NCBI RefSeq assembly: GCF_000027125.1 | Contig: NC_017626.1 | Direction: 5' to 3' (one strand) | Length of the DNA stretch: 64,000 nucleotides | Origin: Escherichia coli 042 | GTDB lineage: Bacteria > Pseudomonadota > Gammaproteobacteria > Enterobacterales > Enterobacteriaceae | Shown here: one piece after another, positions 16,050-47,416 of the stretch | How the letters are laid out: the number at the start of each line of letters is the position of its first letter | How positions within the stretch are numbered: position 1 is the stretch's first letter | The notes under the pieces: model-generated | Database searches by the model: none | What the model was told of the DNA's origin: nothing | The model's input: only the letters and a program-made list of their open reading frames with translations | Translations under genes and position numbers: made by a program

Positions 16050-16101
16050 TAGCATGCTTCCAGTTTTCTCAGTCAGAGACTGAGCGTTAATCGAAATTCG
16101 G

Positions 16102-38530: not shown

Positions 38531-39421
38531 TTAGTGGTTTTGCGCGATAAGATCGTCTGGCGAAAGTCGGGTCAGCGTCAGGATGACTTCGTAGTCAAAT
38601 CCTTTTTCCAGCATCTCCTGAGCAATACGCAGGGCTTCTTCGTGTTTGCCCTGCATTGCGCCTTCTTCACGTAATCTGTCAGCAATGGTCATCAGTTTCT
38701 CCTTTTCTTGTGGTGCGCGTTCCGCTATCTCACCAATAAATGCACGGAAACGCTGGGCATCCCCCGTTTGTAATACGTAATTAAACAGGGCTTTTAGCTG
38801 TCTGTCATTAGTGTTCCCTGTAACTAGCAGCGAAACAATTTGGTCGACTAATCCCAACAGATCGCGCTGACGAATATGTTTCTGAATTAACTCCAACAGC
38901 GCCATTTTGCGATGTTGCATAATCTCGTCATCCGGCACCACGGTAATATCCACCAGCGGAAAAGCCGATGAATAAATTTTGCGGGCAATCGCAGGCTCGG
39001 CAAATTCATCAAGCCAGCAGAGTGAATATGGATAAGGGCTTCTGCAACCATGATAAAACAGCATCGGGATCACTAATGGAAGCTCTTTATAGCCCGCATC
39101 AAGATGGTTTTGCATCGCCGCAATGGAATAGCGCATCATGCGAAAAGCCATTAATTCCTCTGGCTTACTTTGGTGCTCTATCACCACATAAATATAACCC
39201 GCTCCCTCCTGCGTTTTCACAGACCACAAGAGGTCGGAATAATATTGCCGCAGGTCTTCATCAATAAAACTGTTTGGTTCCAGTTTAAGCGTTGTTAAAT
39301 CACACAGTTTGCGCAGCGGCGCGGGAAGATGAATATCAATAAAATCCCGCGCGGTGTCTGGATGGCGTAAAAAAGATTTAAATACCGCATCATGCGGCGT
39401 GGAAGTTGTCGATATTGTCAT
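38531..39421 (-). CDS. rpnB: Rpn-family recombination-promoting nuclease / transposase_31-like protein (RpnB, YfcI)
   Basis: 296-aa ORF; PD-(D/E)xK-type N-terminal region (YIYVVIEHQ); recognised as YfcI/RpnB. Confidence 0.85.
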
Positions 39422-39616: not shown

Positions 39617-40390
39617 TTATTTCAGCGAACCTTTAAGGAACTGTTGCAGACGAGGACTTTGCGGGTTACCGAATAACTGTTCTGGCGCGCCCTCTTCTTC
39701 TATTTTCCCCTGATGGAGGAAAATGACGTGAGTAGAAACATGGCGAGCAAAGCCCATTTCGTGGGTCACCACCACCATGGTTTTCCCCTCTTCTGCCAGT
39801 TGCTGCATAATACGCAACACTTCGCCTACCAGTTCAGGATCGAGCGCCGAGGTAGGTTCATCAAACAGTAAAACTTCCGGTTCCATCGCCAGCGCCCGCG
39901 CGATAGAAACACGCTGTTGCTGACCACCGGACAGGTGCACCGGGTATTTCCCCTGCGCACGTTCGTCTATCCCGACTTTCGCCAGATACTTCACCGCCCG
40001 CTCGCGCGCTTCCTGCTTGCTCAGGCCCAACACCTGAATCGGCGCTTCCATGACGTTTTCCAGCACCGTCATATGGCTCCAGAGATTGAAGTGCTGGAAT
40101 ACCATCGTCAGGCGTGTGCGCAGTAAGCGCAGCTGATTTTTATCGGCGACTTTGAGTTGACCATCTTTGTCGCGCACCAGATTGATCGTCTGGCCATTGA
40201 CCACGATCGACCCTTCACTCGGTTTTTCGAGGAAGTTAATGCAGCGCAGAAAGGTACTTTTCCCCGATCCCGACGATCCGATGATGCTTATGACATCTCC
40301 GGCATTCGCTTGCAGTGAGACCCCTTTCAGCACTTCGTGTTCGCCGTAGCGTTTGTGCAAATCGATAACGTTTAATTTATTCTCGGACAT
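39617..40390 (-). CDS. hisP: Histidine/basic amino acid ABC transporter ATP-binding protein
   Basis: 257-aa ORF; Walker [13 protein letters not shown] signature LSGGQQQR, Walker [12 protein letters not shown]. Confidence 0.96.
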
Positions 40391-40630
40391 CGTATTCTCA
40401 GTGCGTTGAAGAAGGTTTCACATGCTGCAACCAGCGTTTTTCCGCTCTGCGAAAGAGGCTGATCAGGACATAAGAGACCCCTTTCAGCACTTCGTGTTCG
40501 CCGTAGCGTTTGTGCAAATCGATAACGTTTAATTTATTCTCGGACATCGTATTCTCAGTGCGTTGAAGAAGGTTTCACATGCTGCAACCAGCGTTTTTCC
40601 GCTCTGCGAAAGAGGCTGATCAGGACATAA
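40317..40630. repeat. Perfect 157-bp direct tandem duplication (2 copies: 40317..40473 and 40474..40630) spanning the hisM 3-prime end / hisP 5-prime end
   Basis: Character-by-character comparison shows both copies identical; the 4 nt after copy 2 (gaga) equal the first 4 nt of the unit (junction microhomology). Confidence 0.95.
40398..40547 (-). CDS. Chimeric micro-ORF created by the duplication: first 24 codons of hisP fused in frame to the last 24 codons of hisM (49 aa)
   Basis: Manual translation from the duplicated hisP start (40545..40547): [49 protein letters not shown]-stop; carries the duplicated native hisP ribosome-binding context. Expression unproven. Confidence 0.45.
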
Positions 40631-41271
40631 GAGATGATTAAATAGAGCACCGCGGCAATGCCGAAGGCGGTAAAAGGTTGATACGTGGCGGCGTTAATAT
40701 CGCGGGCTATTTTCAGCAGATCCGGCACCGTGGCCGTAAACGCCAGCGCAGTAGAGTGCAGCATCAGGATCACTTCGTTGCTGTATGCCGGTAACGCAAT
40801 ACGCAGCGCAGAAGGCAAAATAATGCAGCGATACATTTTAAAGGTCGAGAAGCCATAGGCTCTGGCGGCTTCGATTTCCCCATGCGGCACTGAACGGATC
40901 GCTCCGGCAAAAATCTCGGTAGTGTAAGCGCAGGTGTTGAGCGTCAGCGCCAGCACGGTACAGTTCAGGCCACTGCGAAAAAAGGCGTTAAGGAACTCGG
41001 TTCCCTTAACAATTTCCAGCGTGTACATGCCGGAATAGAACACCAGCAACTGAACATACAGCGGCGTACCGCGAAAAATATACGTAAATAACCAGATTGG
41101 AAACTGGATGTATTTATTACTTGAGACGCGACCAATCGCCAGAAACAGCGCCATGACTCCGCCTATCACTACCGACAAAATCAGCAGCCACAGGGTGATC
41201 GCCACGCCAGTAAAGCGATAACCGTCGGTCCACAGCAGTGGTTTCCAGTATTCATGTAAGATTTCGATCAC
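40555..41271 (-). CDS. hisM: Histidine ABC transporter permease
   Basis: 238-aa ORF; polytopic permease; start overlaps hisQ stop. Confidence 0.96.
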   Translation of the reverse strand: MIEILHEYWKPLLWTDGYRFTGVAITLWLLILSVVIGGVMALFLAIGRVSSNKYIQFPIWLFTYIFRGTPLYVQLLVFYSGMYTLEIVKGTEFLNAFFRSGLNCTVLALTLNTCAYTTEIFAGAIRSVPHGEIEAARAYGFSTFKMYRCIILPSALRIALPAYSNEVILMLHSTALAFTATVPDLLKIARDINAATYQPFTAFGIAAVLYLIISYVLISLFRRAEKRWLQHVKPSSTH

Positions 41272-41954
41272 AGGTCAGCCCTCTTCACACCCACGGAGTA
41301 GCGGCGCTCAAGGAACAGCAGCACACCATTGGAAACGGTGGTGAAAACCAGGTAAATCACGCCACAAACGATGGCGAAATAGAACGGTTCCCAGGTACTT
41401 TTGCCTGCCAGTTGGGTGGCTTTGACCACATCTTCCAGGCCAAGTAACGAAACCAGAGCGGTAGATTTGAGGATCACCTGCCAGTTGTTGCCAATGCCTG
41501 GCAGGGCGTAACGCATCATCGCCGGAAACATGATCCGCCGAAACACTTGCCCACGAGTAAAACCGAACGCCGTCGCCGCCTCTATATGCCCTTTCGGCAC
41601 AGCCATAAACGCGCCACGGAACGTTTCGGTAAAGTAAGCACCGTAGATAAAACCGAGAGTAATAATACCTGCGACCATCGGATCAATATCAATCTGCCCG
41701 ACGCCCATCGCCTCCGTCACCGTGTTTAGTGCAATCTGCAAACCGTAGAAAATCAGCAGCATCAACACCAAGTCCGGCACGCCACGAATCAGCGTGGTGT
41801 AGCCTTCGAAAATCAGCCCCGAAAGCCGATTTTGCGAGAGCTTACCGCCAGCGCCAATTAAACCGATGATTACAGCGAGCACTACAGAGCTGATAGCCAG
41901 CTCCAGCGTGACGAGCGCACCCTGTAAAATAACACCTGAAAACCCATACAACAT
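41268..41954 (-). CDS. hisQ: Histidine ABC transporter permease
   Basis: 228-aa ORF; ABC permease. Confidence 0.96.
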   Translation of the reverse strand: MLYGFSGVILQGALVTLELAISSVVLAVIIGLIGAGGKLSQNRLSGLIFEGYTTLIRGVPDLVLMLLIFYGLQIALNTVTEAMGVGQIDIDPMVAGIITLGFIYGAYFTETFRGAFMAVPKGHIEAATAFGFTRGQVFRRIMFPAMMRYALPGIGNNWQVILKSTALVSLLGLEDVVKATQLAGKSTWEPFYFAIVCGVIYLVFTTVSNGVLLFLERRYSVGVKRADL

Positions 41955-42043: not shown

Positions 42044-42826
42044 TTAACCACCATAAACATCAAAATCGAAGTACTTTTTCGCTAATTTCTCGTAAGTACC
42101 GTCAGCGCGCATTTCGGCAAAGGCTTTGTTCAGTGCCTCGCGCAGTTCGTTATCTTCTTTACGCAGGCCCATGCCGGTCCCTACGCCAAACAGTTTTTCA
42201 TCTTTAACAGACGGGCCACCGAATTTGTAATCTTTACCGACTGGCTGCTTGAGGAAACCTTCGCTGGCAGCGACCTCATCCTGGAACGCGGCATCAATAC
42301 GTCCGGCAGTCAGGTCAGAATAAATGTTGTCCTGCCCCTGATACGAGACGATTTCAATGCCTTTTGGTGCCCAGTGTTCGTTACCGAACGTCTCCTGGGT
42401 GGTGCCCTGCAATACGCCTACCCGCTTGCCTTTCAGCGACTCGACTGTCGGCTGAATGTCGGAATTTTTCGCCACCACCAGACGAGAATCGGCAGCGTAC
42501 AGTTTGTCGGTGAAGGCAATTTCTTGCTGACGTTTTTCCGTAATGGAAAGCGATGACATGATGGCGTCAATCTTCTTCGCTTTTAAGGACGGGATTAACG
42601 CATCCAGTGGGTTTTCGACAAACGTACATTGCGTATTGATGCGTTTGCACAACTCCTTCGCCAGATCGATATCGAAGCCAACCAGTTCGCCTTGTGAATT
42701 TTTTGATTCAAATGGCGCATAGGTCGGATCGGTACCGATGCGGATGTTTTGCGGAATCGCAGCAAACGCCGCAGTTGCGCTGGAGAAGGCCAGAACCAGA
42801 GAGAGTGATAGCACCAGTTTTTTCAT
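42044..42826 (-). CDS. hisJ: Histidine-binding periplasmic protein
   Basis: 260-aa ORF with signal peptide ([22 protein letters not shown]); about 70 percent identical to adjacent argT. Confidence 0.96.
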
Positions 42827-43046: not shown

Positions 43047-43829
43047 TCAGTCACCGTAGACATTAAAGTCGAAATACTTTTTCGCCATCTTGTCGTAGGT
43101 ACCGTCCTGACGCAGCTCGCCAAGCGCCTTATTAAACGCCGCCGTCAGTTCAGCATCATCTTTACGTAGCCCTACACCGGTACCGTCACCGAAGTATTTT
43201 TTGTCTTTCACTGATGAGCCAGCAAAGGCGAACTCTTTACCAGCAGGTTGCTTGAGGAATCCTTCGCTGGCCGCCACTTCATCCTGCAGTGCGGCATCCA
43301 GACGTCCTGCAGCCAGATCGGAATAGACCAAATCCTGGTTGGCATAGGCCACCACATCCACGCCTTTGCTACGCCAGGTCTCGTTAGCGTAAGCTTCCTG
43401 GGTTGATCCCTGCAGCACACCCACATGTTTACCTTTCAGTGAATCCAGCGTTGGCTGAATCGGCGAACCTTTGGCGGCAATCAAACGAGAATCTGCGGCG
43501 TACAGCTTGTCGGAGAAGGCAATCTCCTGCTGACGTTTATCGGTAATGGAAAGCGACGAAATAATGGCGTCGATTTTTTTCGCTTTCAGTGAGGGGATCA
43601 GCGCGTCAAAGTCACTGGCAACCCAGGTACATTTCACCTGCATCCGTTTGCACATCTCGTTACCCAGATCGATATCAAAGCCAACAAAGTCACCTTTGGC
43701 ATCTTTCGATGAGAACGGCGCATAGGTGGTATCGGTTCCGATACGTACCGTCTCCGGTAGCGCCGCATAGCTGGAAGCCGCTGCGGAGAGACCGACTAAC
43801 AAAGACAGAGCGAGAATCGACTTCTTCAT
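43047..43829 (-). CDS. argT: Lysine/arginine/ornithine-binding periplasmic protein
   Basis: 260-aa ORF with signal peptide; tandem paralogue of hisJ. Confidence 0.96.

Positions 43830-46965: not shown

Positions 46966-47416
<451 letters not shown>

Follow-up and report, generated by a model that had tools for sequence, protein, structure and literature searches.

The 64,000-nt stretch of DNA analysed here (the window) carries the argT-hisJQMP region of Escherichia coli on its minus strand, as read from the list of open reading frames (ORFs), and the gene names agree with the RefSeq annotation of orthologous loci. In the direction of transcription, argT (43047-43829) and hisJ (42044-42826) are followed by the permease genes hisQ (41268..41954; ORF list and RefSeq annotation of the orthologous locus) and hisM (40555..41271), the ABC ATPase gene hisP (39617..40390) and rpnB (38531-39421), all on the minus strand. 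The hisQ stop codon and the GTG start codon of hisM overlap by 4 nt (GTGA). Both hisM, which encodes 238 aa and retains its native C-terminus, and hisP, which encodes 257 aa, are full length. The native hisM-hisP spacing, taken from the RefSeq annotation of Ecol_316, is +7 nt.

Two RNA-related features lie elsewhere in the window. An array at 46966-47416 consists of five REP/BIME-type units of 91 nt with 96% identity, four of which match the Rfam family naRNA4 (CssrE, RF02564) on the minus strand; the element in this array is the source of the ∼20 places per genome hit in a 22-kb BLAST search. The second is a match to the Rfam nuoG RNA motif (RF01748) at 16057-16099 on the minus strand, scoring 50.3 bits where the gathering score is 33.

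The duplication at the hisM-hisP boundary

A perfect tandem duplication at 40317-40630, consisting of 2 × 157 nt, spans the hisM stop codon and the hisP start codon. Tandem Repeats Finder (TRF) and a repeat finder agreed on a single array with a period of 157, 2.0 copies, 100% matches and 0 indels, and this is the only tandem repeat in the 64-kb window that is not of the REP type. On the minus strand, the copy that is transcribed first occupies 40474..40630 and the second copy, of the same sequence, occupies 40317..40473. Each 157-nt unit is made up of the 3′ 76 nt of hisM, a 7-nt spacer and the 5′ 74 nt of hisP. The terminal 76 nt of hisM are thus part of the upstream copy, while the second copy supplies both the 5′ end of the real hisP gene and a hisM-derived tail to the chimeric reading frame described below.

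The novel junction falls at a TCTC microhomology (40474..40477, minus strand; sequence and TRF), with the parental TCTC sites at 40631-40634 in hisM and 40317-40320 in hisP. Because both parental breakpoints carry TCTC, the array reported by TRF extends to 40634, 4 nt further than 2 × 157. With random endpoints, a junction homology of 4 nt or more would arise by chance with a probability of ∼0.016, and the microhomology fits an origin by replication slippage. The most likely route would be RecA-independent template slippage between the TCTC in hisM codons 213-214 and that in hisP codons 24-25. No single-stranded DNA hairpin was detected at the breakpoints or in the unit, where folding was no better than that of shuffled sequences (z −0.93 to +0.65), and the junction created no promoter-like or terminator-like site.

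In its structure the duplication resembles the microhomology-mediated, RecA-independent tandem duplications of enterobacteria, being arranged head to tail with no spacer, having a few nucleotides of microhomology and perfect identity between the copies, and being rare. As for slipped-strand duplications in general, instability through collapse of the direct repeat is to be expected.

Since each breakpoint falls inside one of two adjacent genes, slippage of this kind would leave a complete hisM, a complete hisP and one chimeric frame between them. That a duplication with its ends in two genes generates a chimeric gene at the junction is a general property, familiar from the Roth/Andersson duplication literature. 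The present chimera is a micro-ORF of 49 codons with an ATG start at 40398..40547 on the minus strand, and the ORF list returned exactly the peptide given in the original prediction. Its product joins HisP residues 1-25 to HisM residues 215-238, with a serine common to both parents at the join (Ser25 of HisP, Ser214 of HisM). Like other junction chimeras of tandem duplications, it combines the N-terminus of the downstream gene with the C-terminus of the upstream gene while both parents remain intact. Unlike typical examples it has only 49 codons, and its parents are adjacent cistrons, so that the chimera between them inherits both a start and a stop context.

The sequence gives the native stop-start geometry twice, as had been proposed for this ORF. 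The hisM TGA (40557-40555), which is overlapped by a Shine-Dalgarno (SD)-like GAG, is separated by the 7-nt spacer GAATACG (40548..40554, minus strand) from the ATG of the micro-ORF (40547-40545). The TGA of the micro-ORF (40400-40398) is separated by an identical 7-nt GAATACG spacer (40391..40397, minus strand) from the ATG of hisP (40390-40388). This arrangement depends on the length of the unit: 157 mod 3 is 1 and hisP lies in the +1 frame relative to hisM, so the chimera has at its start a complete duplicate of the hisP initiation region and at its end one of the hisM termination region. The frame arithmetic therefore bears out an in-frame HisP-HisM fusion with a duplicated hisP initiation context. 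With the hisM breakpoint kept, a hypothetical duplication of 156 nt would place the chimera stop codon 72 nt before the hisP ATG, and one of 155 nt would place it 19 nt beyond the hisP ATG.

Occurrence of the junction in public assemblies

Independent isolate and metagenome assemblies at NCBI and ENA yielded the exact 49-aa peptide on at least 13 contigs. It is on record as WP_404854071.1/EPP8202749.1, ‘hypothetical protein [Escherichia coli]’, with 5.24 Mb as the length of the longest contig under that record. The carriers include the NCBI assemblies GCA_036600035.1 and GCA_052648375.1 and the ENA metagenome assemblies ERZ28623246 and ERZ28580464; GCA_036600035.1 matches the window without a single difference across 10,150 nt. 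In the six duplicated loci that we compared, hisM and hisP are intact wherever they are present, the contigs of two loci (L004 and L006) ending before hisM. One duplication-bearing metagenome scaffold has a scaffold gap of 100 N in the 3′ part of argT (L002, positions 2417-2516), which has no bearing on the duplication.

The junction is rare. A junction-only 48-mer had no megablast match in any of 5,426 complete RefSeq E. coli genomes, and a 121-nt probe for the native junction was found as a single copy in all 5,425 of the complete genomes that carry the locus, a second copy being found in none. Exact-match scans for the junction found no match in the GTDB representative genomes and none in the JGI metagenome contigs. 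A literature search returned no paper mentioning hisP, hisM and tandem duplication together. Set against its single-copy relatives, the duplication is, on this genomic comparison, a rare and derived state.

The original prediction had allowed that the duplication could be an assembly artefact. Contig ends that overlap and were left untrimmed, or a repeat resolved wrongly, would produce copies that are 100% identical, as these are, and would be in keeping with a junction that is missing from the complete RefSeq E. coli genomes, the GTDB representatives and the JGI metagenomes. This possibility is refuted by the spread of the junction: at least 13 contigs carry it, produced by different projects with different assemblers, drawn from isolates as well as metagenomes and lying on different SNP backgrounds. 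Moreover, native repeats here are at most 4 nt long, the longest in the native sequence that could mislead an assembler and too short to deceive one of the de Bruijn type, and false joins do not favour microhomology. An artefact is almost certainly the wrong explanation. Because it is found across different projects, assemblers and sample types and there is no native repeat longer than 4 nt, the duplication is, as judged from the assemblies, real.

The two copies are 100% identical to each other in every carrier genome, and as a result persistence driven by selection and simple youth would look the same.

Recurrence on separate backgrounds

The lineage of the window is scarce among complete genomes. 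Over window positions 30000-52000, the region compared for lineage, the best match, strain GN25 from a night heron, reached 98.8% identity across 22 kb and 99.0% across 10 kb. By comparison, many strains match the 601 nt surrounding the duplication at 100%.

The locus in GCA_052648375.1 (L003) has the same junction as the window, yet 258 of 9,993 positions differ once the duplication is collapsed. Two SNPs lie inside the duplicated unit; the L003 alleles occur in both L003 copies, and the window alleles occur in both window copies. With one copy taken out, L003 agrees with the unduplicated strain Z0117EC0036 at all 9,993 positions (0 mismatches).

A homologue search retrieved a second chimera (P0003), of 77 aa, in which HisP residues 1-52, Walker A included, are followed by the same HisM tail. 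Its two loci both contain a perfect tandem duplication of 241 nt with a 2-nt CT microhomology: L005 on scaffold_8 of ENA ERZ28598016, at 4915-5157 plus the second copy, and L006 on NODE_5 of ERZ1742348, a contig that begins exactly at the repeat boundary. As with 157 nt, 241 mod 3 is 1, and the hisM breakpoint of the 241-nt event lies within the CATCTCTT site, as it does for the 157-nt event. Removal of one copy from L005 leaves 9,993 nt that match the unduplicated strain Es_ST80_L1_NDM_10_2017 at every position, and the L005 background differs from that of L003 by 79 SNPs. We rejected a scenario in which the 241-nt allele lost 84 nt to give the 157-nt allele, since the two backgrounds differ by these 79 SNPs and each equals a different unduplicated genome.

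The most economical reading of the compared sequences would be three independent events with a common hisM breakpoint. Had the duplication arisen once, then spread by homologous recombination and had its copies evened out by gene conversion, the identical junction of the window lineage and L003 would be explained; E. coli recombines often, and one recombination-like tract (below) directly adjoins the duplication. The unit SNPs argue against import by recombination: donor alleles would then be expected in one copy at least, yet both copies of each genome carry that genome's own alleles at the sites where L003 and the window differ. The flanks of L003 equal an unduplicated genome over 9,993 nt, and the 241-nt event is necessarily a separate one. 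We regard a single origin as very unlikely.

The recombination-like tract is found in ENA ERZ28580464 (L004). This locus has 13 differences from the window, all of them within 40315-39601, an interval that comprises the body of hisP and the first bases past its stop codon and lies directly downstream of the duplication. It is identical to the window in the end of hisM, in both copies and in rpnB. The differences look like a recombination tract that was acquired after the duplication and replaced hisP. If the tract does postdate the duplication, then the allele would have persisted for some time in the lineage of the window.

By its kind the mutation at this locus is an ordinary one, yet by the comparison above it has arisen more than once at one breakpoint. 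Usual slipped-strand duplications differ in this respect, since here one pair of breakpoints has been used on unrelated backgrounds, and one of its two breakpoints again in a third event. Such recurrence is unusual for 2-4 nt of microhomology, and local DNA structure gives no explanation for it. The 4-nt microhomology alone does not explain a single hisM breakpoint in three independent events; the recurrence suggests that template switching depends on some local factor invisible in the sequence.

Two further features are leads for the hotspot, neither being evidence of mechanism: a TGATCA palindrome with a Dam GATC site (40613-40620), ∼12 nt downstream of the common hisM breakpoint, and rpnB, which encodes a recombination-promoting nuclease, ∼200 nt downstream of hisP.

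Proposed translation of the micro-ORF and persistence of the allele

The original prediction proposed a relay, in which ribosomes that have completed hisM could start again on the micro-ORF and, after it, on hisP. Its structural statements hold, as described above, and the relay itself is plausible. As far as its arrangement can be read, the operon is laid out for coupling, with the GTGA overlap between hisQ and hisM, the 7-nt gap between hisM and hisP and a weak hisP SD sequence. The SD duplex of hisP has a free energy of −2.7 kcal/mol, the weakest in the operon, compared with −4.9 to −6.3 kcal/mol for hisQ, hisM, hisJ and argT, and it consists only of the GAG overlapping the hisM stop codon. 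Alongside this weak SD sequence, the hisP start region is ∼49% unpaired in the predicted ensemble. Klebsiella, Raoultella, Salmonella arizonae and assembly ERZ1332421 all retain a short distance (6-13 nt) between hisM and hisP. The TGAGA motif at short spacing is common to Klebsiella, Raoultella and ERZ1332421, and the spacing in Salmonella arizonae is 10-13 nt.

In E. coli reporters, reinitiation was reduced by 80-100% at a distance of +38 nt (PMC10666635). The optimum for coupling is from −4 to about +3 nt and long overlaps abolish it (PMC12548453); reinitiation declines past about 30-40 nt, and the dependence on coupling differs among gene pairs (PMC10666635, PMC12548453). Our literature search found no direct measurement of hisM-hisP coupling. 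An untranslated micro-ORF would leave 164 nt between the hisM stop codon and hisP; over such a distance reinitiation should fail and Rho should gain access to the mRNA (inference from PMC12548453). Because the hisP SD sequence is weak, the short spacing is kept, the distance dependence is published and the 241-nt duplication is also in frame, successive reinitiation on the micro-ORF and then on hisP appears plausible and would be the best mechanistic reading.

With the micro-ORF translated, ribosomes would terminate 7 nt before hisP, as they do in the wild type. Expression of hisP and its protection from Rho-dependent polarity would then be mostly retained, so that the allele would be close to neutral and could persist. 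The explanation that we favour, and consider probable, is that the locus carries a young, genuine 157-bp head-to-tail duplication, born by slippage, with a micro-ORF that serves as a relay and with nearly neutral effect. The allele is probably a rare, near-neutral and unstable polymorphism.

The duplication could instead be a neutral passenger without any relay, if hisP were initiated de novo at its own ribosome-binding site and any frame were tolerated. The local initiation context of hisP is untouched: each of the duplicated starts shares 83 nt of upstream and 74 nt of downstream identical context, and predicted start accessibility is unchanged (0.49 and 0.48 for the two duplicated starts, 0.49 for the collapsed or native form). 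Published dependence on coupling varies between gene pairs, and the in-frame chimeras may have a simple cause, in that the breakpoints fix the frame, two of the three events are of the same type and a peptide search favours in-frame products. Against this stand the SD sequence of hisP, weaker than any other in the operon, and a conserved, short distance from stop to start; in addition, an untranslated gap of 164 nt should leave the mRNA open to Rho and end reinitiation (PMC12548453, by inference), and the 106 retrieved HisP-N-terminal products included no +2-frame chimera, although such chimeras would have been detectable. We consider a passenger of this sort rather unlikely.

All three duplication events are in frame. 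Among 106 retrieved products with a HisP N-terminus there were no +2-frame hisP::hisM chimeras, although such products would be long and detectable, and the remaining HisP-N-terminal products are frameshifted hisP fragments. This pattern is a weak hint of a filter favouring in-frame alleles. The hint is weak because two of the three events are the same type of event, because the positions of the breakpoints fix the frame, and because +1-frame products are often too short for gene calling; the location of the breakpoints and a search based on peptides may suffice to produce the pattern. A stronger form of the idea, which we consider quite unlikely, is that the hisM-hisP boundary is a hotspot where only in-frame, relay-competent duplications survive, keeping HisP made. 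If true, this would amount to a population-genetic demonstration that translational coupling limits which structural variants of an operon are tolerated, and would provide a concrete birth route for a translated micro-protein between two cistrons.

Positive selection could instead have acted on the allele, either because two reinitiation steps yield less HisP and so retune the HisP:HisQM ratio or because the basic peptide acts on the transporter. Three independent origins with one architecture on three backgrounds would suit an adaptive allele, as would its survival in the window lineage until a putative recombination tract replaced the body of hisP (L004). Strong positive selection is argued against by the absence of a second junction copy from all 5,425 complete genomes and by two of the three origins having left no diverged descendants. 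The peptide has a single exact sequence on record, leaving no signal of purifying selection, and contains neither a functional motif of HisP nor a transmembrane (TM)-competent part of HisM. An adaptive role is highly improbable.

Nothing about the peptide, as far as its sequence can tell, gives reason to assign it a function. It has a computed mass of 5.8 kDa and a pI of 9.9, no 19-residue window exceeds a hydrophobicity of 0.41, and there is no TM-competent segment. The Walker A motif (GSSGSGKST) begins at HisP residue 39 and the HisP part of the peptide stops at residue 25, in line with the expectation that it would have no Walker A; the Q-loop, the signature motif and Walker B are missing too, which excludes membership of the ABC ATPases. 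Its cluster comprises the single exact 49-aa sequence and one 30-aa partial sequence, and the sole chimera besides it is the 77-aa product of the separate 241-nt duplication. Being confined to a few clones, with no sign of purifying selection, it does not have the marks of a functional small protein. The peptide is most likely an unstructured by-product that is quickly degraded.

The hisM-hisP boundary shares with known termination-reinitiation pairs (Huber et al. 2019, 2023; reviewed by Brown and Wade 2025) a spacing of +7 nt, a GAG over the stop codon and the fact that the two genes encode subunits of one heteromeric complex. It departs from them in that the putative coupling would take place here in two consecutive hops by way of an accidental ORF. 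The micro-ORF also resembles short upstream or leader ORFs in being small, putatively translated and followed, after a few nucleotides, by the start of a gene with a weak SD sequence. Unlike leader ORFs, it does not represent evolved regulation: it has no sensing feature, is a polymorphism of a few lineages and is a copy of adjoining coding DNA. Overall, the locus is a microhomology-mediated tandem duplication with a junction chimera, both of them well known, at a boundary between probably coupled cistrons.

If the relay operates, these alleles are natural constructs for testing termination-reinitiation coupling among ABC-transporter subunits, with the wild type, the 157-nt duplication and the 241-nt duplication as the test set. 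The ‘hypothetical protein’ that annotation pipelines record as WP_404854071.1 is better recognised as a by-product of the duplication.

Public assemblies also contain ∼100 distinct short products (P0004-P0107, loci L008-L011) in which the HisP N-terminus is followed by an out-of-frame continuation. Some of these come from long-read complete genomes of the NCTC type (LR134162, LS483466, LR134230) in which both hisM and hisP are broken into fragments. They are most likely indel sequencing errors and not real pseudogenes.
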